The notes beneath the pieces are model-generated. The model ran no database searches. It saw only the letters and a list, made by a program, of their open reading frames with translations, and was not told where the DNA came from. From Terriglobia bacterium (GTDB lineage Bacteria; Acidobacteriota; Terriglobia; UBA7540), in the NCBI GenBank assembly GCA_050014795.1, contig JBEKCQ010000055.1, forward strand, positions 1 through 24,000: a stretch of 24,000 nucleotides of DNA. Reading direction: 5' to 3'. This document shows positions 6,045 to 23,122 of this stretch, one piece after another (the stretch's first letter is position 1; each line of letters starts with the position of its first letter). The translations under genes were made by a program, and so were the position numbers.

Positions 6045-6080
6045 AGAATCTGTAGCGGCGGTCTCCGACCGCCGAGGCAC

Positions 6081-6680: not shown

Positions 6681-6962
6681 CGCTCCTTCGATCGTGCGCG
6701 CCATTATACGCCGGGAAGCACCCCTGCCCAAGGCGAAGGCCCATAGCCCGACACCCCGCCTTAGGTGCCCTTTGTTTTCGAATACGATACGCTTCGCCTT
6801 GAATTGGAACTTTGACCAGCCGGAGGATTCTGTTGCTCACGCGCTGTAGCCAGCGATAGAATCTGCCCGAGTCGGCGCTTTCAGGAGAAGGTTCCGACAG
6901 TATCTGAGGCTTTCACCCGCTGCCGAGTCTCGCATGGCAATCTGCCCCAGGAGGTCCCTCCT

Positions 6963-8429: not shown

Positions 8430-8493
8430 GTGCGGCTCGTCGCCGCGTTGACAGGTTCGGCGAGTTGCGTTACTTTCGTGGTGTCGGTTCCTT

Positions 8494-8571
8494 AGGCCCG
8501 TAGCTCAGCCCGGTTAGAGCGCTACCTTGACACGGTAGAGGTCTGGGGTTCGAGTCCCCACGGGCCTACCA
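8494..8571 (+). tRNA. tRNA-Val (anticodon GAC), CCA encoded
   Basis: Hand-folded cloverleaf: acceptor AGGCCCG/CGGGCCT, D stem GCTC/GAGC, anticodon stem CTACC/GGTAG. The anticodon loop is TTGACAC, the T stem is TGGGG/CCCCA with TTCGAGT loop, discriminator A, then CCA. Confidence 0.9.
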
Positions 8572-8588
8572 TACGGCGTTTCAGCCCA

Positions 8589-8610
8589 TGTAGCGGAAAA
8601 TGTAGCGGGT
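8589..8610 (+). repeat. 22-nt motif TGTAGCGG-AAAA-TGTAGCGGGT, copy 1 (18 nt after the tRNA end)
   Basis: An internal tandem of TGTAGCGG with 12-nt period. It matches 17747-17768 at 18 of 22 positions, differing only in the 4-nt spacer. Confidence 0.5.
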
Positions 8611-8813
8611 ACCTGTGTTGATTGGCTTTGACTGGTTTGGGTTGGCCACGCGCAGATTCGTCACAAGAGCAAAGCTGATCGTAAGATTATATGTACTCGC
8701 CATTTATGGTTGTGTAGAATTCAGTTTAGCTGGAGACGCGGATTGTCATATAACATTCGGGACCCGGAGTAGCCGTGGCAGAGTTCTTGGCGTGCCTTCG
8801 GACGAGGCGGTGC

Positions 8814-9263
8814 ATGGGCGAGCGGCAACGGTCTCGACGTGGGAAGCGAACCGAAGCACAGATCAGCTTCAACATGTCTCGGGTGCGGAGCAGCGGGTCC
8901 AGGATCGAGCGGATGTTGGAGGAGGCTCTCCGGAAGGCTGGCGTCAGACCGAAGAAACAGGCTGCAATTGTTGGGCGACCAGACTTTGTTTTCCGTGCGG
9001 CGCGCGTGGCTGTGTTTTGCGACAGTCACTTCTGGCACGGGTACAAATGGAAAGAAAGGAAGCATGAGATAAAAAGCAATCGCAAATTCTGGTTAGAAAA
9101 GATCCAGCACAATATCAAACGGGATCGATATGTCAACCGCACGTTGAGAAGAGCAGGATGGCTGGTCGTTCGCTTCTGGCAACATCAGATCCTGCATTCG
9201 CCCAGCAAGTGCGCGGCCAAAGTCAAGCAGGTTGTTACAGCTCGAAGGACCGGACTAATTTAG
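8814..9263 (+). CDS. vsr: very-short-patch repair endonuclease (Vsr, T:G mismatch)
   Basis: RSKNMSR-like ISFNMSRVRSSGSRIE, GRPDFVF, AVFCDSHFWHG, NRKFWLEKIQHNIKRDR and GWLVVRFWQH all match Vsr family blocks. The start at ATG 8814 follows GAGG. Confidence 0.85.
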   Translation: MGERQRSRRGKRTEAQISFNMSRVRSSGSRIERMLEEALRKAGVRPKKQAAIVGRPDFVFRAARVAVFCDSHFWHGYKWKERKHEIKSNRKFWLEKIQHNIKRDRYVNRTLRRAGWLVVRFWQHQILHSPSKCAAKVKQVVTARRTGLI

Positions 9264-9265
9264 AA

Positions 9266-10357
9266 ATGGCAATCGTTGCGCTTGACCTTTTTTGCGGTTG
9301 CGGTGGGGTGACCTACGGACTTGCAAGAGCTGGAATCAAGGTCGCCTTGGGTATAGACATCGACGAGCGCTGCAGGTTTACCTTCAGACTGAACAACCCT
9401 GGGACAAACTTCCTTGTGGCTGACATCCGCGATGTTTCGGCACAGACATTACTGAAACACGTCCCCCATCTTACCGAAAGTGACTTCTTGCTGATCGCAG
9501 CATGCGCTCCTTGCCAGCCTTTCTCCTCTCAAAACAGGTCCAAGAACAAGACGTCAGGTCGTGCGATCCTGAACGAAGTAGAAAGAATAGTGCGAGAGTT
9601 GCGTCCCGAGTTCTTGTTTCTTGAAAATGTAACAGGAATACAAAAGGTTCCCGGCTTCAGTGCATTTCATCGCCTGTTGCGAGCTTTACATAACCTCAAG
9701 TACAAAGTGGAGTTTCGCAGTATTGACGCACTCTGGTATGGAATCCCGCAGAGGCGAAAGCGCCTGGTCCTCCTGGCCTCTGTTTACGGAAAGATTCCTT
9801 GGCCTGAGCAGACTCACGGTTTTGGTCCTGGGCTGCAAACGCCGGTCACGGTTCGTGAAGCGATAGCGCACTACCCGCCTTTGCAGGCGGGTGAGGCACA
9901 TCCAACAGTGCCTAACCATATCGCAGCCCGTTTGAGCCCACGCAATCTGGAGAGGATTCGCGCCACGGCTTGTGACGGCGGTAGCCGTAGCGAGTGGCCT
10001 AGACGCTTAGCTTTGTCCTGTCACGATACGCACGATGGTCACGAAGACGTGTACGGGCGGCTCCGCTGGGATGCTCTCGCGCCAACCCTCACAACCAAAT
10101 GCACAAGCATTTCCAATGGAAGATTCGGTCATCCAGACCAAGATCGCGCAATTTCTGCGCGGGAGGCTGCAGCTTTGCAGGGTTTCGACGATCGATTCGT
10201 TTTTTATGGGGGACTGCGTCAGATATCCGTTCAGATAGGAAATTCCGTTCCACCTGTTCTCGCCGAAAGATTCGGGAATGCATTCAAAGCCGAGGCTGAG
10301 GCGCTGAACGCGAACAAGAAGAGAATGAAATGGGCCTTACTCCTGGCTGGCCGATGA
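9266..10357 (+). CDS. dcm: DNA (cytosine-5)-methyltransferase
   Basis: Motif I DLFCGCGG, motif IV APCQPFS (catalytic Cys), motif VI ENV, motif VIII QRRKRL, motif X GNSVPP. The ATG lies 2 nt after the vsr stop. Confidence 0.9.
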   Translation: MAIVALDLFCGCGGVTYGLARAGIKVALGIDIDERCRFTFRLNNPGTNFLVADIRDVSAQTLLKHVPHLTESDFLLIAACAPCQPFSSQNRSKNKTSGRAILNEVERIVRELRPEFLFLENVTGIQKVPGFSAFHRLLRALHNLKYKVEFRSIDALWYGIPQRRKRLVLLASVYGKIPWPEQTHGFGPGLQTPVTVREAIAHYPPLQAGEAHPTVPNHIAARLSPRNLERIRATACDGGSRSEWPRRLALSCHDTHDGHEDVYGRLRWDALAPTLTTKCTSISNGRFGHPDQDRAISAREAAALQGFDDRFVFYGGLRQISVQIGNSVPPVLAERFGNAFKAEAEALNANKKRMKWALLLAGR

Positions 10358-10380: not shown

Positions 10381-12171
10381 CTACAAAAGGTACTGGCCTA
10401 GGTGTTCCAGAGCGTTATCGTGAACAGCCTTGATGACTTCATTTATTTTGTTTTCTACTGAATCAAAGGTCAGAGCCATCCCCTTCTTCTCCATAGCATG
10501 TAAGGCTTCCATAATTATAATGTCAACAAATCGCTGAAAGTGATACTCGCGCCATCTGGGCGATTCGGCTCCGTGCTGCCTATAGATTGCTGCAGCAAGT
10601 GGTCTGGAAGTGTTGATCCAATAGATTCCTGCGCCAACGTCTTGTGGCCGCTGGTAAACCGGGTTATGACGCGAACTCAGATCGACAGTTTGGGTGATTC
10701 CGAGAGGGTCGGGACTGTAGCTTGAAAGAAGGACTACGGGATGCCGCGTTCCTTTCTTTGGCTGGTCGCCCGCCCCTCCGCCTTTTGCGGCACCTTCACC
10801 ACCAGTGCCCCCTTTCGTTCTTGAGGAAGGACTTGTTCCACCCCCCGATCCGTCGATGCCCGTTCCCCCCGAACCAGATCCGGGTTCGGGCCCACCGAGC
10901 ACTTGAGTTAAGAGTCTATCCATAAACTGATTCTTCCAAGTGTTCAGGATTTTGTTAAATTCGTCTGTCAGCCTCAGGTTCTGAAGCGTCCGCTCTTTTG
11001 CTTCTTCCTTTTCAATCTTCTTCCCGACCTCATCAACTTGCTCTGCGATCCACCTTAAAAGCGCCCGCGTTCTGCGGTTATCTATCAGTTTTTCTCGGTC
11101 GTTCTTGACAGAATCTTCTTTTGGATCCTCAAGAATAGGGCAGAAGCATTCACCAAAAATGAACTCAGCCTGCGCGTACTGTTTGATATGCACGAGTTCT
11201 TGGATTCTATACGAGGCAATGACACCGATCTCCCCGAGGATGTCAATGCAGTTCAGTTCTGAAACGCGACTATTCCGCCCGAAAGGCTCCTTTGCAACCA
11301 TTAAGGAAAGATCGCCGGCATGGAACTTCTTGCTTGCGAACTCGATTTCCTCAACGTCCCCGTCTTCTTCGTACGGAAGGACCCGCGGAATCGGGATAGC
11401 CGGGAGGCTTTCAAATCCGGGACGGAGCTCGATTTGCTCACCCACGAGACGCTCCCAAACGAGCTCCCCGTTGTGCAACACTCTTATCGGTTTCCGTTGG
11501 ACGATCTTCCGAGCCTGCGGGTGCAACTTCATTTTCTCACAGAGTCGCGAAACCCGAATTGGACTCCGGACGCCGTCTGGCCGAATTCCACGGACGACCG
11601 TGAAACCAGTTCCTCCCGTCAAGATGCTATCTTTTGTCCTTTCTGGGAGGTCGAGCTCTCCTATCTCCGCCAGCGTCAGCGCTTCTCTTGGTGCGCAGGA
11701 CCTGTTTTGGAGCCCACGGGCGAATCCGTACCTCCTGTTCTCACTAAACCCAAACACATTCAGCATCCCGCCGCGATACGTAATGAAATAGGAGCGTTCA
11801 AACATTTGGCGCATATAGAACTTGCCACCGTTGCCGTGCCCGCCGTAGGTTCGTTTCTTGAGGCCGCGCGAAGCAGCCTTCGGGTCCCCCCAACGTTTCA
11901 AAGCCTTGTCTATATCGTCTGCAGTCATCCCGCAAAAGTCGATACACTCGAAGCTTGCAGGCTCAGTGTGTCCGGCATCCGTGAAGTTCAGCACAATGTG
12001 CTGTTGGTCATCGGGGATCGCCGGTTCCTCCCGGATGTAGGCATCGACCGAGTTCTTTATCCACTCGGGTAGGCCTTTTTCGTGGTTGAACTTGAACTCA
12101 TTTCCGATGATATCCAGAAGGTGATCGTCGATCACATTAGGCTGTTCGATTATGGAGACTTTAAGTGCCAC
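10381..12171 (-). CDS. GHKL (HATPase_c_3 / MORC-like) ATPase with Gly-rich linker and uncharacterised C-terminal domain
   Basis: Bergerat-fold motifs: N-box EWIKNSVDA, G1-like IDFCGMT, G2 YGGHGNGGKFY. A roughly 50-aa Gly/Ser/Thr linker (GGPEPGSGSGGTGIDGSGGGTSPSS...GGGAGD) precedes a roughly 115-aa C-terminal domain. The GTG start follows GAGGAGGAAA and overlaps the upstream gene by 11 nt. Confidence 0.75.
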   Translation of the reverse strand: MALKVSIIEQPNVIDDHLLDIIGNEFKFNHEKGLPEWIKNSVDAYIREEPAIPDDQQHIVLNFTDAGHTEPASFECIDFCGMTADDIDKALKRWGDPKAASRGLKKRTYGGHGNGGKFYMRQMFERSYFITYRGGMLNVFGFSENRRYGFARGLQNRSCAPREALTLAEIGELDLPERTKDSILTGGTGFTVVRGIRPDGVRSPIRVSRLCEKMKLHPQARKIVQRKPIRVLHNGELVWERLVGEQIELRPGFESLPAIPIPRVLPYEEDGDVEEIEFASKKFHAGDLSLMVAKEPFGRNSRVSELNCIDILGEIGVIASYRIQELVHIKQYAQAEFIFGECFCPILEDPKEDSVKNDREKLIDNRRTRALLRWIAEQVDEVGKKIEKEEAKERTLQNLRLTDEFNKILNTWKNQFMDRLLTQVLGGPEPGSGSGGTGIDGSGGGTSPSSRTKGGTGGEGAAKGGGAGDQPKKGTRHPVVLLSSYSPDPLGITQTVDLSSRHNPVYQRPQDVGAGIYWINTSRPLAAAIYRQHGAESPRWREYHFQRFVDIIIMEALHAMEKKGMALTFDSVENKINEVIKAVHDNALEHLGQYLL

Positions 12172-12811
12172 GAGTTTCCTCCTCGTTGCCCGATCTTGCA
12201 GATGACGTCTTCAGCCTAATCATATCTGCAAACCTCTCCACCATAAACTGATGAAACCGAGCAACAGCGACTAAGGAAAGGTCATCGGGGTTCGCATCCG
12301 ATATCTCATCCAGTGCGGATTTCACTGTTTCCAAACGCCCAATGAAATCGTTCCTCGTGGTGCGAACGCTAACACCCAGGTACTCGAACAAGTCTGAATC
12401 AATGATCTCGTCTTGCTTATTCGCGAGAAACAATTTGAAGCCCTCGAGGTGCTTTATCCTTTCTAGTTCTATCTGGGCGCCGCGTTCGATTCGGTGGCCC
12501 AGACGGGCCGAAGGGGGGCGACCCCCCTCAATAGCCTGAAGTCTTTGTACTTCTGCTAAACCGTGGGATGTCAGGGAGAACATCTTGTTCGAGGCCGAAA
12601 CCATCCCCTTTTTTCGATAATCGTAAAGGGGCTTGTGAACAATATCTCCTGAGTCTGGAAACTCAGGATGTCCTTTCAAGTGGAAGTCGCTAGCGTAGTC
12701 CCTGAACGCTTGTACGACTATATCCTCGTATCGAACCTTCCGGCGCCCCCCGTCAGAAAGGCGGTACAGACTGAGCAAAACCTTTTGCGCCATCGACAAC
12801 TGAGAGCTCAC
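12161..12811 (-). CDS. hypothetical protein (216 aa), possible N-terminal winged-helix; operon partner of the GHKL ATPase
   Basis: GTG start with an upstream GGAGGAGG/GGAAG. The N-terminus MAQKVLLSLYRLSDGGRRKVRYEDIVVQAF looks wHTH-like. There is no catalytic motif I can name. The 11-nt overlap with the GHKL gene implies co-translation. Confidence 0.6.
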   Translation of the reverse strand: MSSQLSMAQKVLLSLYRLSDGGRRKVRYEDIVVQAFRDYASDFHLKGHPEFPDSGDIVHKPLYDYRKKGMVSASNKMFSLTSHGLAEVQRLQAIEGGRPPSARLGHRIERGAQIELERIKHLEGFKLFLANKQDEIIDSDLFEYLGVSVRTTRNDFIGRLETVKSALDEISDANPDDLSLVAVARFHQFMVERFADMIRLKTSSARSGNEEETRGT

Positions 12812-12972
12812 GGCCGTTCTTCCGCCTCCTCCGACTCTGAGATATGTCCTCTTGTGCGCGAAACCAATCTTAACATATGCTCATGTCGCTGGAGAGGAAA
12901 GGCGCAGCCTCGATAGCAGCTCTCTTCCCCCCGTTTTCAAGCACGAAGAGCCTGATTGCGAAGGGCATTTGT

Positions 12973-14628
12973 ATGAATGATATTCCGGACCTTCCGGCGC
13001 ACTTGTCCCAGCGGCTAATCGGGGAACTCGACCTTTCCACACGGGCTTATAACGCTCTGAGCAAACACGGCGTGCGCACAATCAGCGATCTTGTCAAATT
13101 AAGCGACGAGGAAATGCTGCGCCTACCCTGGTTTGGTACGAAATGCCTGAATGAGGTGCACCAACTAACTCAGTCGCTCCTGCTGAGCTCAGCAAGGGAT
13201 CATGCAACTCCCAAGGAAGGCTTTGACCTTGCCGAATTAGCGCAATCGCATCCGAAAGACGCGTCCACATCCCTGCCGACGGATTATAGTCTGAGTGAGT
13301 GGGCGGTCCCAACACCGGCCAAGGGAGACTTGGATACGCCGATTGAACGCCTGCATTTGTCGCCTCGGGCGGCGAAAGTGCTTGGCTACCTTGGGATCAA
13401 GACGATTCGACAATTGCTTCGTTGCCCCAAGAATGCACTGCGCAAACAACCGAACTTTGGGCGTGTAAGCTTGTATGAGTTGGAGCGCAAAGTCTTCGAC
13501 AGCCTTGAGGGAAGTCACCAGCACGACTTCTCTCTAGGGACCAAGGCATTCACGGCAAGACTGCTTGCCTGCCTCCCCGAGCGCCAACAGAGGGTGATCG
13601 CAGATAGATACGGGCTGTGGGACGGTATTGCGGAGACACTGCAGGACATCGGAGACAAGTTGGGTCTGACGCGTGAGCGTATACGTCAAATAGAAGATAA
13701 GAGCCTTCGTCGAATTCGTGGTCGATTTGGTCTCCACATTGTAGTCGCATTTCTGCGCGCGACGTTCAGCGAGGCGCTCTCCCATCGACTTAGCGGGTGC
13801 GCTGGAATCCTAAGCGAAGACGAAGCCATGCAGGGCATGGCGAATGATTGCACCCTCGAAGAGGCGGCGCTGGCAGTTGCCTTTATGCGGGACATATGCC
13901 CGACCGAGGATGACATATTCGGGCTCTGTCTACGCAAAGTGGGGGACGGCGTCTATTGCGTAGAGCCAGAAACGGCCGAACGCTATGAGAAGGTACTCGG
14001 ATTGATCGAGAGCGGACTCGAAGGGCGTGGGGGGCCAGTAGCGGAAGGGAAACTCTGTGACGAAGTGCTGGAACGAACAAGGGCCTCTGAGCATCTTGAC
14101 TGGAGGCCGCTTATCCAGCGAGTTCTCGCCGTCTCGCCCTCTTTAACTCGCCTACGAAATGGAACTGTATGTCTCTCTGGGTGGACTGAGGTTCGCGGTC
14201 GCGATTACCCCAGTCTGGCAGTAACAGCGCTCGTCGCCCTGGGCCGTCCCGCTCACTACAAGGAGATTTGGGAGAAGGCCATGGCGCTCTATCCGCGACT
14301 AGGTGAGCTTAGTATACATGCGATTCATAACCGCCTGACTTCCAGATCGGACAAGTTCGTGTGGGTCGGGAAAGGAACTTATGGACTGAAAGCATGGGGA
14401 CTCAAAAGACCTCCGTATATAAAGGACAAACTAACGGAGCTGCTTTCGGAGGCCAAGTACCCGCTCCCTTATTGGCATCTCAAGGTCAAGGTGCTGGAGG
14501 TGTGCAACTGTAAGGAGGAATCGGTGCGCATGACGTTGGACCTGAATCCCCGCATTTTCAGGAAATTCGCAGACGACCAATATGGTCTTCGCGAGCACTA
14601 CGAGCGAAGGACCCATCGCCAAGGCTAG
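12973..14628 (+). CDS. multi-HTH protein: 2x RNA polymerase alpha-CTD-like (HhH) + sigma-70 region 4 + C-terminal HARE-HTH-like domain
   Basis: Module 1 LDLSTRAYNALSKHGVRTISDLVKLSDEEMLRLPWFGTKCLNEV and module 2 LHLSPRAAKVLGYLGIKTIRQLLRCPKNALRKQPNFGRVSLYEL resemble RpoA-CTD. LPERQQRVIADRYGLWDGIAETLQDIGDKLGLTRERIRQIEDKSLRRIR is a textbook sigma-70 region 4. The C-terminal ALGRPAHYKEIWEKAMALYPRLGELSIHAIHNRLTSRSDKFVWVGKGTYGLKAWG resembles HARE-HTH / RpoE-delta N-domain. The start is ATG 12973 (MNDIPD); the track alternative is 12877. Confidence 0.7.
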   Translation: MNDIPDLPAHLSQRLIGELDLSTRAYNALSKHGVRTISDLVKLSDEEMLRLPWFGTKCLNEVHQLTQSLLLSSARDHATPKEGFDLAELAQSHPKDASTSLPTDYSLSEWAVPTPAKGDLDTPIERLHLSPRAAKVLGYLGIKTIRQLLRCPKNALRKQPNFGRVSLYELERKVFDSLEGSHQHDFSLGTKAFTARLLACLPERQQRVIADRYGLWDGIAETLQDIGDKLGLTRERIRQIEDKSLRRIRGRFGLHIVVAFLRATFSEALSHRLSGCAGILSEDEAMQGMANDCTLEEAALAVAFMRDICPTEDDIFGLCLRKVGDGVYCVEPETAERYEKVLGLIESGLEGRGGPVAEGKLCDEVLERTRASEHLDWRPLIQRVLAVSPSLTRLRNGTVCLSGWTEVRGRDYPSLAVTALVALGRPAHYKEIWEKAMALYPRLGELSIHAIHNRLTSRSDKFVWVGKGTYGLKAWGLKRPPYIKDKLTELLSEAKYPLPYWHLKVKVLEVCNCKEESVRMTLDLNPRIFRKFADDQYGLREHYERRTHRQG

Positions 14629-14813
14629 GCTCGTCTGTTTCTGCAAGCGCACAATCGCATTGAGGGTATGACCTGCAATCGAGCTCATATTCAAGCACTC
14701 ACGCGCAGGGTTCGCCTCGCGCCCCTCCCTGCTGAGCAAAAGCTTGAAGTACCGCAATGATAGACGTAATCTTACGGAAACTCGCGACCCAGATAGCTGC
14801 AAAGGAGAGGAGG

Positions 14814-15611
14814 ATGGGCCACCAAATGCTACTTAATCGTGACGAAATCATGAGCAATGAGGTCATCCGGAATGGCGCCGAGAGTGCCTATCGCGCTGCA
14901 AGCTACGACCTGCGAGTCGGAAGAATCCTCACAACCTCTGGGGAGGAAAAGACGACCTTCATAATTCCGCCTCAAGGCATGGTTGACGTAATCTCACAGG
15001 AGAGGGTCATTTTGAAAGGGAGCATCGCCGGGTATGCTACGGTGAAAACGAGCTTGTGCCGGAATGGCATCCTCGCGATAAACATCGGGATTATTGACCC
15101 CGGTTATGAAGGGCTCATCTCCAGCACCCTCATAAACTTCAGCAAATGCCCATTCGCTCTCAGAGCCGGCGACCCTTTCCTTCGACTCACATTCCATCAG
15201 TACACTGCGCCCCGAACCCTTCCGGCTGCTCCATCCAAGGGGGATGAGGAATACGTTCAAGAACGAAAGAAGATGGTGCAAGAACGATTCTCTGCCACGT
15301 TTCTGGATGTCCCTCAGACGATTGAAAACTTGACCCCACCCTTAATCAAAAGGGTTCTAGATGATTGGAAGAGTGCTCTTTACAAGTGGGCACCGCTTTT
15401 TGCCTTCGTTATTGCTCTGCTCGCCTTTCTTGTGAACGTTGGTGCCACTCGCTTCGGGCAGCCCAAGGTGTCGAAGGAGCAATTAAAGGCAGAGGTGGTT
15501 GCCGAAATTCGCGATGAGAACCACAGGATTTTTGAAGAACGCCTGCAGCAAGTGGAGCGGCAGACTCAGCAATTACTTACTGAGAGGGAGCATCAGAAAA
15601 AGGTACAGTGA
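14814..15611 (+). CDS. dCTP deaminase/dUTPase-fold (Dcd-like) protein with C-terminal TM helix and coiled coil
   Basis: ASYDLRVG, VKTSLCRNG and IGIIDPGYEG...ALRAGDPFLRLTF align without effort to E. coli Dcd blocks (ATVDVRLG, GRSSLARLG, RIDPGWSG...ALRPGMLIGALSF). A hydrophobic helix WAPLFAFVIALLAFLVNVGA (nt 15387-15446) is followed by a charged heptad-like tail. The ATG 14814 is preceded by AAGGAGAGGAGG. Confidence 0.75.
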   Translation: MGHQMLLNRDEIMSNEVIRNGAESAYRAASYDLRVGRILTTSGEEKTTFIIPPQGMVDVISQERVILKGSIAGYATVKTSLCRNGILAINIGIIDPGYEGLISSTLINFSKCPFALRAGDPFLRLTFHQYTAPRTLPAAPSKGDEEYVQERKKMVQERFSATFLDVPQTIENLTPPLIKRVLDDWKSALYKWAPLFAFVIALLAFLVNVGATRFGQPKVSKEQLKAEVVAEIRDENHRIFEERLQQVERQTQQLLTEREHQKKVQ

Positions 15612-15637
15612 TAGAATAGTACGGAAAGGAAGTGTAG

Positions 15638-16630
15638 GTGGACAGCTTCGATTCCGTCGACGAGATTCAAAAGTGGGTTCTGGAATCATTGCTGGCACGG
15701 GGTGGCTCAACTCGGCCACGTGGTTCGGCCACACTTGAACTATTCCCAGTCTCGTTCATGCTTCGACATCCACGAATGAGATGTGTTACGAACCCGGCGA
15801 GACGATGGATTTTGCCATTGGCCCTGGGGGAATTTTGCTGGCACCTCTCCGGCTCAAATGATGTTCACTTCATCGAATATTACTCCAAACGCTGGAGAGA
15901 ATTCGCAGAGAGCGGTTCCTCGACCATCTGTGGCAGCTCTTATGGTCATAAGATATTTTCCCGAAGCGCCGGTGAACCCAGTCAATGGGACCGGCTTGTC
16001 GAGCTACTGCGAGTCGACCAACAATCGAGGCGTGCAGTGCTTGGTCTCTTCGACCCGGCTCGTGGCCTCAATCAAGATGAGAGAGATGTTGCCTGCGCCT
16101 GCTCCTTGCAGCTCATGATTCGGTCTGGTCGGCTCTTAGCCTTTGTCTACATGCGGAGCAATGATGCCATCTGGGGTCTGCCTTACGACATTTTCTTTTT
16201 CACTATGCTCCAGGAGTTGCTTGCCTGCGAGCTTGGCTTAGAACTTGGCTATTATTATCACTTCGCGGCTTCGCTTCACCTCTACGAACGTCACTTTGAA
16301 CTTGCCCACCGAATCGTTGAGACCGAGCCAGGTTCGCACTTTGAAATGCCACCGATGAGTGTGCACAAACAGGTTGACGATTTTCTGCGATTGGAGGCCG
16401 TACTCAGGTCCAGGCACGAGCTGTTACCCCGGCAGGTCGGAACGCTACATCCCTACTGGCGTGATTTGCTGGCCGTACTCGAGTGGTATAGTCAGGCAAA
16501 GGGTGCCGGGGGTTATCAAGCGGTGGCTGAGAAGGTTCCTACACCGTCCCCATATGGTCTGCTGTTGAGAAATATGTTGCCCAAAGCAGAGGCGGGAACG
16601 CGTGCCTATGCGGCGGATTATTCAGATTGA
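15638..16630 (+). CDS. thymidylate synthase (ThyA) family enzyme, predicted deoxycytidylate-specific (hydroxymethylase or methylase type)
   Basis: Gap-free block YMRSNDAIWGLPYDIFFFTMLQELLACELGLELGYYYHFAASLHLYERH against E. coli ThyA [50 protein letters not shown]. Also a catalytic Cys block VACACSLQLMI, SRRAV (phosphate-binding Arg pair) and LGEFCWHL (Glu). The GTG start follows GGAAAGGAAG. There is a roughly 90-aa C-terminal extension. Confidence 0.8.
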   Translation: MDSFDSVDEIQKWVLESLLARGGSTRPRGSATLELFPVSFMLRHPRMRCVTNPARRWILPLALGEFCWHLSGSNDVHFIEYYSKRWREFAESGSSTICGSSYGHKIFSRSAGEPSQWDRLVELLRVDQQSRRAVLGLFDPARGLNQDERDVACACSLQLMIRSGRLLAFVYMRSNDAIWGLPYDIFFFTMLQELLACELGLELGYYYHFAASLHLYERHFELAHRIVETEPGSHFEMPPMSVHKQVDDFLRLEAVLRSRHELLPRQVGTLHPYWRDLLAVLEWYSQAKGAGGYQAVAEKVPTPSPYGLLLRNMLPKAEAGTRAYAADYSD

Positions 16631-17099
16631 GGCTCACGCAAAGTTCCTGCAAATAGCTAAGCGCGTGAGTTTAGGGTCGAACTGTGTGCGTGGCCAAGTT
16701 GGAGTCGTGCTTGTCCAGGGGGGCAAGATTGTTTCGACGGGCTGGAACGGGGTGCCGACATCATTTCGCGATTGCCTTTCCGCAGGCTGTCCGCGATGCA
16801 AGCACCGGACTTCCACGGGAAGAGGGTATGACCGGTGTATCTGCGTCCACGCTGAACAGAGCGCCATTGCTACGGCTGCCCGCAACGGAATTCCTCTGAG
16901 GAGTGCAACAATGTATGTGAATCTCCGCCCTTGCCTTGGGTGCCTGAATCTGGCACTCACAGCCGGTGTTCGGAAAATCGTCTATGAAGTATCATGGACA
17001 TATCCAAGCAACATAGAGGCAGCCTATGAGAGGATTGCCAAAAGGCTGTCGTCTTTCCTTCGCGTCGATTCTCGTCGGAATAAGGCTGGAATTCGATGA
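16602..17099 (+). CDS. dCMP deaminase (ComEB / deoxycytidylate deaminase family, zinc-dependent)
   Basis: CVHAEQSAI (HAE) and RPCLGC (PCxxC) zinc motifs, plus an upstream Cys cluster CLSAGCPRCKH typical of dCMP deaminases. It is a single 165-aa domain. The start (GTG 16602 or ATG 16608) overlaps the 3' end of the ThyA-like gene. Confidence 0.85.
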   Translation: MPMRRIIQIEAHAKFLQIAKRVSLGSNCVRGQVGVVLVQGGKIVSTGWNGVPTSFRDCLSAGCPRCKHRTSTGRGYDRCICVHAEQSAIATAARNGIPLRSATMYVNLRPCLGCLNLALTAGVRKIVYEVSWTYPSNIEAAYERIAKRLSSFLRVDSRRNKAGIR

Positions 17100-17230: not shown

Positions 17231-17527
17231 TCAATTCGTTAGATGGCTGCCTACATCGGCGTTCTGTGCGAAGGCCTGCTTGTGGTGAAATGCCCGCCTG
17301 AATGCTTCGAGCTTCCGGATTGCGTCCCGCCGGTACTCGTCGATGACCTTGGCGTACGTCTGCAAGATGCCAGCAGATGAGTGCCCCATCATTTGAGCCA
17401 CGAAGAGATCCGGCGTCCCTGAAGCACTCAGCCTGCTGGCCACTGTGGCTTGGAGGTTGTGGCTAGCGTTGATGCCGCCCCTACTGGCGGCCGTCGCCCA
17501 TCTTACTGTGACTGGGACGACGTGTAG
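17231..17527 (-). pseudogene. tyrosine recombinase 3' remnant (C-terminal ~98 codons only)
   Basis: The reverse strand reads ...INASHNLQATVASRLSASGTPDLFVAQMMGHSSAGILQTYAKVIDEY.... This is a degenerate HxLRHT box (SHNLQAT) followed by the GHSS...Y catalytic-Tyr box. An in-frame stop at 17528-17530 bounds the frame, and no N-terminal two-thirds exists before the next gene. Confidence 0.65.
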
Positions 17528-17686
17528 TCAGGGGCACATTAGGTGCCGGCATCGGCTAGCGGCTTCGATGGCTTCCCTCTTAACTCAAAGCAACAAAAGG
17601 TGTTATGCGCCAACCAAGGGCGGGCGCTACCCTGCCTAGGTAGCGGGCAGCGCTTTTCCCCGGTGTTGCGGCCCAAACCTAACCCT

Positions 17687-18811
17687 TTATTGTACAACAA
17701 GTTGCGGCCTTCTTTCCTGCCCGCCAATTCCAGATTGGAGGGCAGTTGTAGCGGCTTTTGTAGCGGGTTCAGCCACTTTCCCAGGTGCCAGAATCAGTTC
17801 TACGGCCTTTCTTTTCAATTCGTTAGCGGGGTGCATGTAGCGGCGTGTCATCACAATTGACGCGTGCCCCGCCAGTTCTTGAATCACTGCCAGCGGCACA
17901 CCGGCGTCACTGAGACGCGAGCAAAAGGTGTGGCGCAGCTGGTGAAAAGTGATATGCGGAATTTCGGCAATCTTAACCGCCCGGCAGAAGGAATGTTTGA
18001 TATCTCCAACATGCTCCTTGGAGTTCTTTGGTGAAGGGAACACCCACTCGCCCTCGACCTCTTCGCGCCACTGTTGCAGCGTTGCGCGCAGCACCGCGTT
18101 CACGTACATCACCCGCCCTTGGCCTGCCCTGGTCTTCGACTTCCGCACGATCAGAATGCCGTTGTCCAGGTCGATGTCGGCCCAGCGTAGTCGAAGGATT
18201 TCGCCGCGCCGGAGGCCCGTATACACGGCCACCAAGATAATCGGCTTCAGGTGCGGTGCGAGGAAATGCAGTTCCGGGTGGTCACAGGCCTGCAGGAGCT
18301 TCGCCTCTTCCTCATACGAAAGGACGCGCTCGACTGGCGGTCCGTCCAGCTTGAATAGTTTGGCGTCACGGGCGCCGTTGGTTTCGACCAACTCCCACTT
18401 CACCGCCGTGCTCAGCATGCTTTTGACCAGGCCGACCTCACGGTTGATTGAAGATTTCTTCAAGCCCGCGTCCAGGCGCTTCTGCTTGAATTTCTCCACG
18501 GTGTAAGCTGAGATTTCATTCAACCTGTACCGCCCGAGGAACGGAACCAAGGCACGCGGGACGTAGTACCTTTCTACCGTGAAGGCCGGTTTGTTGGCTT
18601 CGCTGTATTTCAGGTAGCGAGCGGCAAAGTCAGAAAACTTCGGATTCTCCTTCTTCGCCAGGCCGTGTTTCCCAAGGGCCAGCTGGGCCTTGTGAACCGA
18701 CTCAATCCTGAGTGCCATCTTGCGGCTTGTCAGTTTCGTTGGCCGCTGGATATGCTGGCCTTCGAACCAGAAGTGGTACCACCAGACTCCCCCGCGCTTG
18801 TAGATGCTCAT
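17687..18811 (-). CDS. int: site-specific tyrosine integrase
   Basis: MSIYKRGGVWWYHFWFEGQ N-terminus, Arg box GLRRGEILRLRW, HQLRHTFCSRL, and LAGHASIVMTRRYMH (catalytic Tyr). The ATG 18811 is preceded by GAGGGAGAAG. Confidence 0.9.
   Translation of the reverse strand: MSIYKRGGVWWYHFWFEGQHIQRPTKLTSRKMALRIESVHKAQLALGKHGLAKKENPKFSDFAARYLKYSEANKPAFTVERYYVPRALVPFLGRYRLNEISAYTVEKFKQKRLDAGLKKSSINREVGLVKSMLSTAVKWELVETNGARDAKLFKLDGPPVERVLSYEEEAKLLQACDHPELHFLAPHLKPIILVAVYTGLRRGEILRLRWADIDLDNGILIVRKSKTRAGQGRVMYVNAVLRATLQQWREEVEGEWVFPSPKNSKEHVGDIKHSFCRAVKIAEIPHITFHQLRHTFCSRLSDAGVPLAVIQELAGHASIVMTRRYMHPANELKRKAVELILAPGKVAEPATKAATTALQSGIGGQERRPQLVVQ
17747..17768 (+). repeat. 22-nt motif TGTAGCGG-CTTT-TGTAGCGGGT, copy 2 (inside the integrase 3' coding end)
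   Basis: Matches 8589-8610 at 18 of 22 positions. On the reverse strand it encodes PATKAATT, about 20 codons before the int stop. Confidence 0.5.
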
Positions 18812-18995
18812 TTTCTTCTCCCTCAACGGGCTGACGATGCTGATCGACGAATTCCTCCAGGTCACTTTCGCGGAATCGCACCAGGCGGCCAATCTTGCGG
18901 TGGGAAATCCGCCTCTGGGCGACCCAGAGGTAGAGCGTTTGCGGTTTCACCCCCAGCTTGGCGGCGGCTTCTGCAATGGTTAGAAGCTTTTCCAT
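18702..18995 (-). CDS. xis: excisionase / HTH_17 (MerR-like) DNA-binding protein
   Basis: MEKLLTIAEAAAKLGVKPQTLYLWVAQRRISHRKIGRLVRFRESDLEEFV is a typical excisionase-family HTH. The ATG 18995 is preceded by GGGGGTGGG. The reading frame continues 110 nt past the int start. Confidence 0.75.
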   Translation of the reverse strand: MEKLLTIAEAAAKLGVKPQTLYLWVAQRRISHRKIGRLVRFRESDLEEFVDQHRQPVEGEENEHLQARGSLVVPLLVRRPAYPAANETDKPQDGTQD

Positions 18996-19250
18996 TGCCC
19001 ACCCCCAAGGGTTCTGCGCCCCACACGCCCCTGGGCAAAGCCCCCTAGCACCCCGCCAGGGGCAACACCCGGCCCGCCAGCACCCCCCGGCAGGGGTTGG
19101 CTTGGCCCCAGAATCAGCGGCGCCGTGGGCCGCATTTGGCCGCCAAGGCCCCTGCAAGCCGTGGGCTGCTGCCCCCGCAGCCACAGCAACGGGAAACTGC
19201 CCCAGCGGGTCTGCAAGCGGCATTTTCGGGCATTCGGCTTGGGCCATATA

Positions 19251-19295
19251 CCACTGCTAAATATAGCACATTTTGTGCTGTTTATAAAGCAGTGG
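19251..19295. promoter_or_regulatory. imperfect 45-nt palindrome upstream of the xis-int leader
   Basis: CCACTGCT (19251-19258) pairs with AGCAGTGG (19288-19295). There is an inner AGCAC/GTGCT pair around TTTT. It sits at the sharp boundary between a G/C-rich leader and an AT-rich spacer. Confidence 0.35.
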
Positions 19296-19529
19296 ATAGC
19301 AGTTTCTTTACTAGTATGACATTTTGACCCTTCGGTCATTTTGCCCGTTTGAATAACCACCAATGAATCCCCGAATCCGTTTATGATTTTCCCCTTTAGG
19401 GATTTGCGTTCCAATCGACACCTCCTCTGCCTCAGCTGTTGGTCAAACTACCTGTTGCTCTAGCAGCCTGACCACAGGCTATGGGCATCGTAGGCGAGCG
19501 GTTTTGCAGGGTACAGGCAATGAATGGGG

Positions 19530-20447
19530 CTAATTCTTGAAGGTGACTTGGGAGCGGGCTTTTCGGGCTCGTCTAATCCCCTTCTCAATCGTGTTGTATT
19601 CATGGCGTCGCTCCAAGGCGAGGAGCGCCGTAGCGAGGTGTTTGGGTTGCCAGGTCTCTGGCTTTTCCCACGATGCAGCCACGTCCTGCCTGCCGTAAAG
19701 AATCTCAGCGAACGCTTCACCTCCGAGTATGTATGACCCTCCCCGCATTCGGGACACCTGCTTCCACAATCTCTCTCGAACGCTTTTTAGCACTCCGGCC
19801 TTGGTGACGGCTTTGGACTTCTCTTGTTCAATCGCAGCTCTGACGACATTGTGAAGGTTTAGGCATTCGGCGACCAGAACCTTGAACCTTCTCATCAGCC
19901 ACTTGTCTTCCTCGCTTCCCCTGCGCCGCCCTTTGGGTCGCTTAGGGGAAGCCTTCCATCCTTCAAATATTTCCACGAACTCCTCATCGAATTTAGGGTG
20001 ATGAAACTGGTCGCAGTAAAGAACCTGGAGCACGTTTTTCCAAGTCTGCGCGTAGGCAGCGTATCCGACCGTTACCAGTTGGGACCAAATGGTGTCTTCA
20101 CCGGCAGCCGGGACCTCCCACAAAGCTTCTTGAAACATGTCTGCCAGGTTTATCCCGAGGCCAGATGGAAGGGCCTTGTTCGTCTTAGCGATCTGCGGTG
20201 GAGGCGCTGGGAATGTCATCACGATTTGCACGACACGATGTCTATCGCGCAATGAGAGCTGCGGGGGCGGACATTCGCTCACAAGCCAATTGCGGAGTTC
20301 GGCCTCTATCGAGCGTGGAAACCTCATCGGTACTCCTAGGTCCTTGCGCCACGCTTGCTGCATTTCGGCGTCTGGACCACGCCACTTTTTGCCCCGAGGT
20401 TCTTTCTCCTGCTCGTGATTGGCCTTTGAATCTAGTGGCTCTGCCAT
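19530..20447 (-). CDS. hypothetical protein (305 aa)
   Basis: Long ORF with ordinary amino-acid composition, on the same strand as xis-int and divergent from the primase gene. I recognise no motif. Confidence 0.6.
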   Translation of the reverse strand: MAEPLDSKANHEQEKEPRGKKWRGPDAEMQQAWRKDLGVPMRFPRSIEAELRNWLVSECPPPQLSLRDRHRVVQIVMTFPAPPPQIAKTNKALPSGLGINLADMFQEALWEVPAAGEDTIWSQLVTVGYAAYAQTWKNVLQVLYCDQFHHPKFDEEFVEIFEGWKASPKRPKGRRRGSEEDKWLMRRFKVLVAECLNLHNVVRAAIEQEKSKAVTKAGVLKSVRERLWKQVSRMRGGSYILGGEAFAEILYGRQDVAASWEKPETWQPKHLATALLALERRHEYNTIEKGIRRARKARSQVTFKN

Positions 20448-20746
20448 GACGAATCCCCCTCCACAAGATGTGCTGTTTGGAGTCTACACGAGACGAGAAC
20501 GATTCGGCACTGCTCCCTGCTAGGTGCGAAATGCAGGGCATGTTTTGACCCCATTACGTGAATTCACGCCTTTCCCCCCCTCTGATATTCCTCCTCATGG
20601 CAAGAACATTTCTCGAGTAGGCGAGACAGTTCTTCGGCCGAAAGTAAATTGAATTGGAAGCGGCGCCAGGCAGCGCCGGCAGTTTTTCCCACCTCCTGGG
20701 TTCTGCCACGCTGCCTGGCGTCGGCCAAAAAACTCAGGAGGGGTTC

Positions 20747-23122
20747 ATGCGTAGACCAACTTCAACGGAAGTGGCAGCTTTCCGCTCGCTCTTTGTGGCT
20801 CGACCTGACGCCTATGTCCTGTGGCGGGCCGGAAATCCCGTGGCCGTACACCGCCCACTGGACAAGCAGGTCTTGGAGGGTCATTTAGCGGGCGATGGCC
20901 GGGTGGGCACGTATCTGCTTCTGCGAGGAAACCTGACGCCGTTCCTGGTTTTCGATCTCGATGAGCCGAACAAAAGTCTGGTGCTGAAGATACGGAAGCG
21001 CCTCAAGCGACATCGCATACCCGCATATGTTGAGCGGTCGAAATCCAAGGGTTTCCACATCTGGGTATTCTTCGAAAAACCGCTTCACGCGAAATTGGCG
21101 CGCCGGTTCGCGAGCGCCTTGATCGCTGACCTAGGCAACACGAAAATCGAGATTTTCCCAAAACAGGATTGCGTTCCGAAGGAAGGGCTGGGCAATTGCA
21201 TTTGGCTGCCGTTGCATTCGCCGGACGTTGTCAGACGGCGCACAGTCTTTCTCGACAGCAACTTCCATTCGATTCCCGATCAATGGGGCTTCCTGGCTGA
21301 AGTGCGGCGCGTGGGGGAAAGGCGAGTCCGGCGGGCTTTGGAAACAATGGCGCTGGAGGCGCCAGCGAACAGCAGCCCAGCTTCCAATCAGATCCAGCGG
21401 TTTCCCAGAACGAAGCAGTTCCCGCGACTCCGGAATCATGCGCCCAAACTGGCTCCTTGTGCTCAGGCGATACTGCTGCAAGGGGCTGACGAGGGCAATC
21501 GAAATGTGGCCCTGTTTACACTCGCGAAACATCTGCGGGGCGCCAGCTTAGACCAAGCCGCCGCCGGAGAGTTGGTACGCGCTGCCAACATGAACTGCCG
21601 CCCTCCCTTGTCGGAGCAAGAGGTCCGGGGCATCATTCAATCAGTTTTCGCCAAAGGCTACACATCACTCGGCTGTGACAAGCCGTTCATCGCCTCCCTG
21701 TGCAGTGACCAGTGTCCCGTGAAAAGAGCCAATGAGAAAAGGGTTGGGACGTCTGCAATTCGGATTCTCGACCAGGCCGAAGCTCGGCCGCGTATTCATC
21801 CTTCGCAGGCTTATGTGGACGGGAAGTTGTGGTACGGCTTGAACGCCGGGAGAGAGGAGGTGTGGGTAAACAGCGACAGGCAGGCCAATTCAATGGAAGA
21901 AATGCTCGATAGGTTCACCTTGGAGAGAAAGCCCACCAAGATGAGGTGGAGCACGGCCGGCGTCAAGAGGTTCCTGCGGGAAAGCGGGTCCGTCAGCCCA
22001 GCTGAACTCTTCTTGAAGATACGCGGCTTGCTGGAGGATCACATTCGCTTTCGGTCCCGCTGGCAGCCCACACTAGTTGCCCTGTGGACGATGGGGACAT
22101 ACGTCCATCAGGCCTTTGCGTATTATGGCTACCTCTGGCTAACATCGCCGGGACGCCGTTCGGGCAAATCTCTACTGCTGGAGATCATTTCTTGCCTTGC
22201 CTATAACGCGACGCCGGTGATGACAGACCCCTCCGAGGCTTCGCTTTACCGGGATACCGCAGCCAACTCTAGCACGCAGGTCCTGGACGAGGTCGAATCG
22301 CTCCGGCGGGCCGATCAGGAGAAGCACTCTGGTTTGATGGCCATGCTCAACTGCGGGTTCAAGGCAGGCGCAAAAGTACCCCGGTTTGACATCAGTACAA
22401 ATCGCGTGGAGGACCTCGACGCCTACTGCCCTCGAGCGTTAGCCGGAATTAGTCGCCTGCATCCAGTCCTAGCTGATCGGTGTTTTAAGATATTCCTGAA
22501 GCGCAAGAGGCCGGACGACAAGGTCAAACGCTTTTCCGAGAGAAGATTGGCTTCAAAGCTCCAGGGGATGCGTGACGACCTGCATGTGTTTGGTCTGCTC
22601 TATGCACCCCCCGTTGGGGAACGCTACGACGAATCTGATTCTCTAGTCTTGCCACCCGAAGTCGATGACCGTGCGCGGGATATATTGGAACCGCTGTTCG
22701 CCATTGCCTGGGTCGTCGACAATGCAGGTCCTGAGCTGGCTATAGCGGAGGTTCTGACGGTAGCCGCCAGGGCTATTGCGCGGGATCGCGCAAGTGATGA
22801 AGGCGAAGATGAAGAGATAACTGCGGCGCTGGAGATCCTGGTGCAGGACTATCCCGAAGGCAAAGACAAGTGGATTCTGAGATCCGACAGGGCGGTAGGA
22901 ATTTTCAAGAGTCATGAGTCGCTGGAATGGATGGAGTACCCTCGACAGGCTGCGAACCTATTGCGCCGCCTGGGCTTCAGGTCAGCACCGCACCGAATCG
23001 GGCGAAAGGTAACACGCGGCTACCAAATCCGCAGGCATGTCTTGATCGACATGTGCAAGTGCTATGGCGTGAACTTGGCTAATTCTCAAAATGAGGCGTT
23101 ACCGGCGTTACAGGCGCGGTAG
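20747..23122 (+). CDS. replication protein: archaeo-eukaryotic primase (prim-pol) domain + PriCT-like + DUF3631-like P-loop C-terminal domain
   Basis: AEP motifs LVFDLDEP (DxD), SKGFHIWVFF (sxH) and EIFPKQD. PriCT-like NRNVALFTLAKHL...SEQEVRGIIQSV. C-terminal SPGRRSGKSLLLE (P-loop-like) and QVLDEVESL (Walker B-like). The ATG 20747 is preceded by AGGAGG. Confidence 0.85.
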   Translation: MRRPTSTEVAAFRSLFVARPDAYVLWRAGNPVAVHRPLDKQVLEGHLAGDGRVGTYLLLRGNLTPFLVFDLDEPNKSLVLKIRKRLKRHRIPAYVERSKSKGFHIWVFFEKPLHAKLARRFASALIADLGNTKIEIFPKQDCVPKEGLGNCIWLPLHSPDVVRRRTVFLDSNFHSIPDQWGFLAEVRRVGERRVRRALETMALEAPANSSPASNQIQRFPRTKQFPRLRNHAPKLAPCAQAILLQGADEGNRNVALFTLAKHLRGASLDQAAAGELVRAANMNCRPPLSEQEVRGIIQSVFAKGYTSLGCDKPFIASLCSDQCPVKRANEKRVGTSAIRILDQAEARPRIHPSQAYVDGKLWYGLNAGREEVWVNSDRQANSMEEMLDRFTLERKPTKMRWSTAGVKRFLRESGSVSPAELFLKIRGLLEDHIRFRSRWQPTLVALWTMGTYVHQAFAYYGYLWLTSPGRRSGKSLLLEIISCLAYNATPVMTDPSEASLYRDTAANSSTQVLDEVESLRRADQEKHSGLMAMLNCGFKAGAKVPRFDISTNRVEDLDAYCPRALAGISRLHPVLADRCFKIFLKRKRPDDKVKRFSERRLASKLQGMRDDLHVFGLLYAPPVGERYDESDSLVLPPEVDDRARDILEPLFAIAWVVDNAGPELAIAEVLTVAARAIARDRASDEGEDEEITAALEILVQDYPEGKDKWILRSDRAVGIFKSHESLEWMEYPRQAANLLRRLGFRSAPHRIGRKVTRGYQIRRHVLIDMCKCYGVNLANSQNEALPALQAR

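Follow-up and report, generated by a model that had tools for sequence, protein, structure and literature searches.

A mobile two- or three-gene cassette predicted to act on deoxycytidine nucleotides is linked to C5-methylcytosine restriction loci

The DNA considered here is a 24,000-nucleotide stretch (the window) from a Terriglobia bacterium of the Acidobacteriota (GenBank assembly GCA_050014795.1, contig JBEKCQ010000055.1, positions 1 to 24,000 of the forward strand). It contains a trio of adjacent genes, named here DcdL, ThyL and Deam after the protein families that they resemble. Comparison of the trio with related loci gives good support for a mobile, conserved cassette of two or three enzymes that is predicted to act on deoxycytidine nucleotides and is functionally tied to restriction loci of the C5-methylcytosine type. 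Full-text literature searching found no description of the DcdL-ThyL architecture. As far as the literature searched shows, the architecture is undescribed.

An initial annotation of the window, made without database searches, had reported three tightly packed genes on one strand, and this is confirmed. A gap of 26 nucleotides (nt) separates DcdL from ThyL, and ThyL overlaps Deam by 29 or 23 nt, depending on whether Deam begins at its GTG or its ATG codon. The three domain assignments made there were also correct (PF22769, PF00303 and PF00383, in gene order), as was the aspartate substitution noted in the second protein, which is Asp184 and is invariant in 30 homologues. The trio as such had been taken as the functional unit, and a survey of its co-occurrence in other genomes had been proposed; here the outcome differs between the first two genes and the third.

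Loci for this comparison came from a genome scan (19), a metagenome scan (80) and further contigs, and were merged where the ThyL proteins were at least 90% identical, giving 82 groups. DcdL lies directly upstream of ThyL on the same strand in 55 of the 59 groups with enough flanking sequence. These represent at least six phyla, so the pairing is not a matter of chance, and the stop and start codons of the two genes often overlap. A deaminase gene follows directly downstream in 20 of 64 groups, a divergent deaminase gene lies upstream of DcdL in 8 of 43, and in 5 of 55 the place downstream is taken by a gene for an HMUDK_hel protein (PF18723, E-value 1e-107) instead of the deaminase. Some third gene is present in 22 of 37 groups, and about half of the loci have no deaminase. 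What is conserved is thus the two-gene DcdL-ThyL cassette with an optional third gene, and the trio in the window is its commonest three-gene form. Carriers include Acidobacteriota, Myxococcota, Alpha- and Gammaproteobacteria, Cyanobacteria, Binatia and Verrucomicrobiota. The distribution is sporadic, with horizontal transfer across phyla, and the cassette is found on islands, plasmids and conjugative elements. In some genomes, such as that of Melittangium boletus, the pair stands alone among housekeeping genes. Other cultured carriers include Sphingomonas sp. ASV193, Antarcticirhabdus aurantiaca R10, Henriciella marina, Marinobacter sp. DUT-3 and Sphingorhabdus contaminans.

The product of the first gene, DcdL, is 265 amino acids (aa) long and has the Dcd/dUTPase fold. 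It matches the Pfam DCD family (PF22769) at 3.9e-12 and TIGR02274 at 4e-16, the latter below the cut-off of the model. The best sequence match of its core is to 155-aa archaeal proteins deposited as 'dCTP deaminase', although a structure library lists the same entries as dUTPases (8y1w, 9ln0). These archaeal dUTPases are also the best Foldseek matches of the AlphaFold2 model of DcdL (predicted local distance difference test score 90), with a TM-score of 0.80 on the target. The IDPGY motif, the K-T-S motif and the LR pair are kept in the DcdL family. The position of the catalytic Glu138 of Dcd (E. coli numbering) is Thr in the DcdL of the window and T, Y, F or V across 29 homologues, as placed in an alignment made by hand with E. 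coli Dcd. The dUTPase matches, the retained nucleotide-binding motifs and the loss of Glu138 together argue for a nucleotide pyrophosphatase type and not a deaminase. DcdL is thus a predicted pyrophosphatase of deoxycytidine triphosphate (dCTP) or deoxyuridine triphosphate (dUTP).

Beyond its core (residues 1-165) DcdL continues in a long helix with a 19-residue hydrophobic stretch (approximately residues 193-211), followed in the AlphaFold2 model by a coiled coil; the transmembrane-like helix and the coiled coil are both conserved. A hydrophobic 19-mer (Kyte-Doolittle value >= 1.6) is present in 29 of 29 aligned homologues at a fixed offset, ~94 residues past the IDP motif. These features point to a conserved membrane anchor, which the initial annotation had missed while assigning the fold correctly. 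At E <= 1e-30 the DcdL family comprises 433 clusters (50% identity), almost all of them full length, and neither PADLOC nor NCBIfam holds a model that covers DcdL or ThyL. More distant DcdL paralogues occur in another conserved cluster that has no ThyL (L178 3814-8188, L180 3814-8205 and L187 3816-8250), together with genes for a radical S-adenosylmethionine (SAM) protein, a HAD hydrolase and an FAD/Trp-halogenase-like oxidoreductase; this cluster may be another nucleotide-modification pathway. In a further locus (L017 2472-4652) a 726-aa protein encoded just upstream of a DcdL-ThyL-deaminase cassette ends in a true dCTP deaminase domain (TIGR02274, 8.5e-37), which follows an unknown N-terminal region of 520 aa.

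The second protein, ThyL, is a 330-aa enzyme of the thymidylate synthase family (Thymidylat_synt, PF00303, 1.2e-25). A family profile built from the 30 homologues matches the CMP hydroxymethylase MilA (5jnh) at 8e-66 over residues 8-300, including the extra C-terminal helical domain of MilA, while its matches to T4 gp42 dCMP hydroxymethylase and to true ThyA reach only ~1e-21. ThyL itself is 36% identical to MilA (BLASTP, 1e-49). The earlier assignment to the ThyA family can therefore be refined to the MilA clade with a deoxynucleotide signature. Invariant in the 30 homologues are the catalytic Cys153, Glu65, the phosphate clamp Arg131/Arg132, Ser174, Asp176, Asp184, His214 and Tyr216, along with an RSxD motif. 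Asp184, in a PYD motif, occupies the position of Asn177 of E. coli ThyA, and its invariance excludes a thymidylate synthase of the dUMP type. Lys133 and Ala176, which specify ribose in MilA, correspond to Arg132 and Ser174 in ThyL and in all of its homologues. In the published study of MilA these two residues were found to account for the preference for CMP, and the A176S/K133R mutant lost CMP activity and kept activity on deoxycytidine monophosphate (dCMP). Membership of the MilA clade and the Arg/Ser pair at the deoxy-specifying positions lead us to predict that ThyL acts on dCMP, as a C5-hydroxymethylase.

Deam, the product of the third gene, is 163 aa long (165 from the GTG at 16602) and matches dCMP_cyt_deam_1 (PF00383) at 4.5e-19. 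Its best match among PHROG families is phrog_174, dCMP deaminase (3e-35), and the ComEB model TIGR02571 matches more weakly (7.8e-14). The HAE and PCxxC zinc motifs can be read in its sequence, as can a Cys-rich insert before HAE; such an insert forms the zinc cap that confines dCMP deaminases to free nucleotides. Deam is accordingly a predicted zinc enzyme of the dCMP deaminase family. It also matches models of anti-phage dCTP deaminases (PADLOC dCTPase 2.5e-22, NCBIfam NF041025 5.8e-18), over the deaminase core only. The matched part of the profile is positions 432-485 of 630, and the score of 65 bits falls far below the cut-off of 400 bits.

The association with restriction loci emerges from the genes around the cassette. 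All-against-all clustering of 689 neighbouring open reading frames (ORFs) gave few recurrent families: deaminases (23 loci), C5 methyltransferases (17), very-short-patch repair endonucleases (Vsr; 14), HNH nucleases (4), HMUDK_hel proteins, integrases and a resolvase. Among 28 well-flanked groups, a C5 methyltransferase gene lies within the flank (a few kb) in 13 and a Vsr gene in 11. At the 71 phage loci with homologues of ThyL described below, the corresponding counts are 3 and 0. The neighbouring methyltransferases are diverse, with a median pairwise identity of 30% compared with 49% for ThyL, and are encoded up- or downstream on either strand. This diversity of sequence and arrangement favours repeated juxtaposition over inheritance of one block. 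Nucleases beside the cassette-linked methyltransferases include HNH, MvaI/BcnI-family and AspBHI_N plus Mrr_cat types. One locus is a single operon in the order Dcm-HNH-Vsr-DcdL-ThyL-Deam. Five additional ThyL-linked loci were reached independently from the DcdL side, and all five have restriction-type neighbours (L181 and L183 to L186 in Table 1). Integrases or conjugation genes adjoin the cassette repeatedly. The mobile, defence-type setting described at the outset thus stands as to its island features; the neighbours are, however, not generic defence cargo but specifically C5-methyltransferase/Vsr restriction loci.

The window itself includes genes for such a pair, Vsr and a Dcm-type methyltransferase, outside the operon (Table 1). 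The Vsr clusters with Vsr ORFs of six other loci through a motif of the FVHGCFWHGH type. G+C content drops from ~0.62 to 0.52-0.57 from the tRNA-Val gene to the end of the window, and the surroundings of the trio fit a mobile island. No copy of the tRNA-Val 3' end (an att repeat) occurs in the window, which places the right end of the island beyond position 24000. What appears to be a second mobile element adjoins the trio on its right, at 17231-23122. Domain searches of the larger ORFs in the window found no kinase, glycosyltransferase or phage structural domain, in agreement with what the initial annotation had stated. A scan of the window for promoters and terminators was uninformative, with 0 promoters and terminators at chance level.

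Two genes between the methyltransferase and the cassette encode proteins of 596 and 216 aa with no match in Pfam, PADLOC, NCBIfam or the Protein Data Bank (PDB). The larger has 762 homologues at ~50% identity across distant phyla (Acidobacteriota, Nitrospirota and the candidate phyla radiation). Its motifs EWxKNSxDAY, DFxGMT and GGHGNGGKF correspond, in an alignment with an HATPase_c_3 protein, to the N, G1 and G2 boxes, but at an hhalign probability of only 1%, and this reading of motifs hints weakly at a GHKL-ATPase-like protein. Both genes may be restriction components, the larger perhaps as the restriction partner of the adjoining Dcm and Vsr. The 583-aa protein encoded directly upstream of the trio partially matches two defence models, PglW and MzaA. 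Other loci do not keep it beside DcdL-ThyL, and for that reason it is not counted as part of the cassette.

Table 1. Positions and characteristics of features in the window and at related loci
Sequence	Feature	Position	Strand	Remarks
Window	DcdL	14814..15611	+	ATG start preceded by GGAGAGGAGG; a longer ORF begins at 14757
Window	ThyL	15638..16630	+	ORF
Window	Deam	16602 (GTG) or 16608 (ATG)..17099	+	ORF
Window	tRNA-Val	8494-8571		
Window	Vsr	8775..9263	+	Likely true start near 8874; context, outside the operon
Window	C5 cytosine DNA methyltransferase (Dcm type)	9158..10357	+	PF00145 2.5e-49; PADLOC MTase_II 6.4e-78; context, outside the operon
Window	596-aa gene, no assigned family	10381-12171	-	Between Dcm and cassette; overlaps the 216-aa gene
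Window	216-aa gene, no assigned family	12161-12811	-	Between Dcm and cassette
Window	583-aa protein	12877-14628	+	Immediately precedes the trio; has two RNA-polymerase alpha C-terminal domains, sigma-70 region 4, weak HARE-HTH
Window	Integrase C-terminal fragment	17231-17443	-	Right of the trio
Window	Full integrase	17687-18892	-	Right of the trio
Window	HTH_17 excisionase-like gene	18702-19247	-	Right of the trio
Window	AEP-TOTE PrimPol with PriCT_1 and DUF3631	20654-23122	+	Right of the trio
L175 (Leptospira interrogans)	Plasmid sister cassette	6019-8580		
L176 (Brucella intermedia)	Plasmid sister cassette	5986-9000		
L177 (Pantoea agglomerans)	Plasmid sister cassette	5986-8959		
L181	One operon: Vsr, C-protein-like helix-turn-helix gene, C5 methyltransferase, MvaI/BcnI nuclease, DcdL, ThyL			1 nt from nuclease stop to DcdL start
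L183	Weak RE_NgoFVII match and PrimPol			
L184	Trio adjoining type IV secretion genes			
L185	Trio after a type I system			Vsr 5 kb off
L186	DUF4420, Z1 and HATPase_c_3 genes			Plus an integrase

Relatives of ThyL without DcdL fall into three sets. The first consists of 71 thymidylate-synthase homologues from phage contigs, which have the same PYD motif, are 28-40% identical to ThyL and lack the C-terminal domain. DcdL is absent from these 71 phage loci and from 50,697 sequenced phage genomes. A dCMP deaminase gene adjoins 37 of the 71, in the same order as ThyL-Deam, and HMUDK_hel is present in 11. A thymidylate synthase with the Asp and a deaminase in cis mark cytosine-modified phage contigs (70% compared with 6%), where a MazG-like PRA-PH domain co-localises with the two; some of these cis deaminases make dTTP from 5-methyl-dCTP (bioRxiv 2024.12.05.627091). 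The second set is a sister cassette on plasmids, composed of a MilA-like enzyme (35% identity), an aGPT-Pplase3/amino-acid:DNA transferase (AADT; PF18746/PF18724, 1e-120) and a convergent ImmA/IrrE metallopeptidase regulator. The plasmid collection yielded this sister cassette only, with no DcdL-ThyL, and the arrangement resembles a DNA hypermodification module carried by plasmids. The third set comprises ThyL variants in two loci, L126 and L121, that carry thymidylate-kinase-family genes, neighbours seen only in loci without DcdL. In this variant (L126 3505-11385; L121) ThyL is accompanied by a deaminase and two such kinase genes, and the neighbouring gene encodes a protein of 1227 aa that has protein-kinase and ORC/CDC6-like STAND domains. 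With their HMUDK_hel, AADT and kinase partners, bacterial enzymes of the ThyL type are repeatedly found with proteins that would direct a 5-hydroxymethyl-pyrimidine to DNA or work on it once it is part of DNA.

The reading that we favour, at slightly less than even odds (about 0.45), is that the cassette does in cells or mobile elements what cytosine replacement does in phages and supplies 5-substituted deoxycytidine for DNA, in restriction-type conflict between self and non-self or in protection of a mobile element. Membrane-anchored DcdL, with the fold of trimeric dUTPases and no deaminase glutamate, would hydrolyse dCTP, and probably dUTP as well, to the monophosphate, as its fold and residues suggest. 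ThyL would then add a one-carbon unit from methylene-tetrahydrofolate at C5 of dCMP, the product most likely being 5-hydroxymethyl-dCMP. Where Deam is present, dCMP, its 5-substituted form or the triphosphate could be deaminated into the uracil or thymine series. During expression of the cassette, 5-substituted deoxycytidine nucleotides would replace canonical dCTP and newly made DNA would carry C5-substituted cytosine, so that the DNA of the cell or element itself might withstand nucleases that are sensitive to C5 substitution, or bear a mark of self.

Several points weigh against cytosine replacement by this route. Entry of 5-hydroxymethyl-dCMP into DNA would require a host kinase, which is the weakest step of the scheme. 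No nucleotide kinase was found beside any DcdL-linked cassette or in the window, and in T4 the kinase step requires gp1, which E. coli also needed in order to take 5-hydroxymethyl- or 5-methyl-dC into its DNA (bioRxiv 2024.12.05.627091). The chemistry of ThyL is likely to be hydroxymethylation, as judged by its clade, and sequence cannot tell this from methylation. In one locus (L005) a nuclease with AspBHI_N and Mrr_cat domains is encoded at 7233-8546 on the minus strand, between the cassette and a Dcm/Vsr pair. Enzymes of the AspBHI family cut DNA that contains 5-methylcytosine or 5-hydroxymethylcytosine (hmC), and one beside a cassette would clash with global or constitutive self-hydroxymethylation. 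No bacterium is known to have hydroxymethylcytosine as a base of its genome, and the membrane anchor of DcdL is left unexplained by the proposed route. Finally, DS-4, the only bacterial thymidylate-synthase cassette to have been tested by experiment, was validated as anti-phage in E. coli with its mechanism left unexplained (DefensePredictor, Science 2026), so that the role may instead be defence without self-modification. A narrower proposal, which we consider rather improbable, makes DcdL-ThyL an accessory arm of C5-methylcytosine restriction-modification at the level of the nucleotide pool. With DcdL as the control point, it would either mark self with hmC before replication, in a folate-dependent manner, or strip or override the cytosine modifications of phages, which would expose their DNA to the C5-sensitive nuclease.

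The depletion of nucleotides as a defence, which the initial annotation had preferred, is unlikely but live. DcdL would hydrolyse dCTP on infection, ThyL and Deam would convert the product to 5-hydroxymethyl-dCMP and dUMP that are not recycled, and the phage would be starved of dCTP. The location of the cassette on mobile and defence islands, adjoining restriction systems, suits this proposal, as does the missing kinase, in whose absence 5-hydroxymethyl-dCMP could be a dead end; the two sinks formed by ThyL and Deam would block re-phosphorylation of dCMP. Depletion of dCTP is moreover a known principle of defence, Deam matches the core of anti-phage dCTP deaminases, and the validation of DS-4 shows a thymidylate-synthase cassette acting against phage. 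However, the Deam matches lie far under the family cut-offs and involve the deaminase core only, DcdL and ThyL have no PADLOC match, and there is no obvious trigger or inhibitor by which the host would be spared. Depletion also leaves the specificity of the neighbours for C5 methyltransferase and Vsr unexplained. The HMUDK_hel and DNA-transferase partners of sister cassettes act on DNA and not on pools, and it is these, HMUDK_hel and the pairing of a thymidylate-synthase homologue with AADT, that make a net drain of dCTP and dCMP less well supported than a role in DNA.

Rather less credible is a counter to phages with modified cytosine, in which DcdL would hydrolyse 5-hydroxymethyl- or 5-methyl-dCTP, ThyL run in reverse (5-hydroxymethyl-dCMP to dCMP) or Deam remove the modified nucleotide, and the resulting plain-cytosine DNA be cut by the neighbouring C5-sensitive nuclease. 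This would account for restriction partners whose nuclease is blocked by C5 substitution and for a DcdL of pyrophosphatase and not deaminase type; HMUDK_hel could act on 5-hydroxymethyl-pyrimidine in phage DNA, and each component might be seen as taking away 5-substituted cytosine at a level of its own. It demands, however, unusual substrate use with a preference for modified nucleotides, and every precedent of these enzyme families runs forward. There is no evidence of hydroxymethylases running backwards in cells, and a methyl group is not removable by the reverse reaction. Synthesis of an antimetabolite of the 5-hydroxymethylcytosine type, raised at the outset by analogy with MilA/BcmA, or of a nucleoside antibiotic has in its favour that MilA is the closest characterised relative of ThyL. 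We regard it as very unlikely: Arg and Ser replace the ribose-specifying Lys and Ala, neither an N-glycosidase nor any other biosynthetic neighbour recurs, and what is found at the restriction loci is a unit of only two genes. Equally slight are the chances of a housekeeping pyrimidine route, either from dCTP through dCMP and 5-methyl-dCMP to dTMP or as plain thymidylate synthesis. A precedent for such a route exists in phage enzymes of the Xp12 type, which start from 5-methyl-dC nucleotides and, together with a cis deaminase, arrive at dTTP (bioRxiv 2024.12.05.627091). Against it stand the sporadic, horizontally transferred distribution across phyla in mobile locations, the half or so of loci that have no deaminase, the invariant Asp, which rules out a dUMP-type thymidylate synthase, and the MilA clade, which points to hydroxymethylation. 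Detoxification of 5-aza-cytidine in cells with C5 methyltransferases was also considered and was rejected by reasoning, since 5-aza-dCMP would trap an enzyme of the thymidylate synthase type.

If it is true that 5-hydroxymethyl-dC enters cellular or mobile-element DNA, pre-replicative replacement of cytosine would no longer be confined to phages. Restriction-modification would gain a second layer of self-marking, independent of SAM, and the first in cells to be based on hmC. If the deoxycytidine pool is instead starved or edited on infection, the cassette would be a new multi-enzyme, nucleotide-based immunity that cooperates with restriction enzymes. In either case a MilA-like enzyme predicted to use dCMP may help to make 5-hydroxymethyl-dC nucleotides, and a membrane-tethered protein of the dUTPase fold would be a new enzyme architecture. 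At least 433 protein clusters (50% identity) belong to a family whose annotation at present goes no further than 'dCTP deaminase' or 'thymidylate synthase'. The finding is thus more general than the initial annotation saw, and its interest lies in the link to restriction, the membrane-tethered dUTPase-fold enzyme and its testability.

The individual proteins can be set against characterised relatives. The archaeal Dcd-family dUTPases (Thermococcus pacificus dUTPase, 8y1w, and P45, 9ln0) have nucleotide-binding motifs in common with DcdL and likewise lack the deaminase Glu, whereas DcdL is always paired with ThyL and has ~130 extra C-terminal residues with the transmembrane-like helix and coiled coil. 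With dCTP deaminase (Dcd) DcdL shares the jelly-roll fold and nucleotide-binding motifs, but not the catalytic Glu138. Among the MilA/BcmA CMP 5-hydroxymethylases, MilA is the closest solved relative of ThyL, and the two have in common the C-terminal five-helix domain and the catalytic Cys, Glu, His, Tyr and Asp. Where MilA has Lys133 and Ala176, ThyL has Arg and Ser, an exchange that switches MilA from CMP to dCMP, and no gene for an hmCMP N-glycosidase of the MilB/BcmB type adjoins the cassette in the window or the 82 loci.

The functional parallel to the T4 set of gp56, gp42 and Cd that was first drawn for the trio holds. Both that set and the metavirome cassette of PRA-PH/MazG, thymidylate synthase (Asp) and deaminase have the same three predicted activities as the trio. 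ThyL has the catalytic Cys and the Asp at the Asn177 position that characterise a replacement module of the T4 type, and Deam provides its dCMP deaminase. The dCTPase gp56 is MazG-like, of the all-alpha MazG/PRA-PH type, whereas DcdL has the beta fold of Dcd and dUTPase with a membrane anchor and is an analogue at best. In contrast to the T4-type module, neither a gp1-type dNMP kinase nor an hmC glucosyltransferase was found in the window or among recurrent neighbours. The phage genes for cytosine replacement differ in setting too, as the cassette is a neighbour of restriction systems in the chromosomes of bacteria and in mobile elements.

Two groups of bacterial systems are also comparable. 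The anti-phage dCTP deaminases of the DcdV/AvcD type, and the dGTPase depletion defences, provide a parallel in action on the deoxycytidine pool and in the cytidine-deaminase zinc core that is common to Deam. The dCTP deaminases are, however, single large proteins with a kinase-like N-terminal domain and a C-terminal deaminase, while Deam has only 163 aa and DcdL is of unrelated fold. DS-4, like the cassette, places a thymidylate-synthase homologue of bacteria in a conflict role. Besides that homologue, its five genes encode a dNMP kinase, Nmad2, a TIR protein and an HMUDK_hel protein described as a 'DNA base hypermodification protein'; aGPT-Pplase, MazG and dUTPase domains appear in the study among predictions that were not validated (DefensePredictor, Science 2026). 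The HMUDK_hel of DS-4 is homologous to the third gene of some DcdL-ThyL loci (29% identity, 1e-31). The thymidylate-synthase homologue of DS-4 is 24% identical to ThyL, and its specificity position is occupied, in the alignment made here, by Asn (the uracil type). DS-4 lacks DcdL, and the kinase, TIR and Nmad2 that it includes are all absent from the window; it differs from the cassette in every other part. On these comparisons we rate the cassette as a member of the nucleotide- and DNA-modification cassettes that are built around thymidylate-synthase homologues and take part in genetic conflict.

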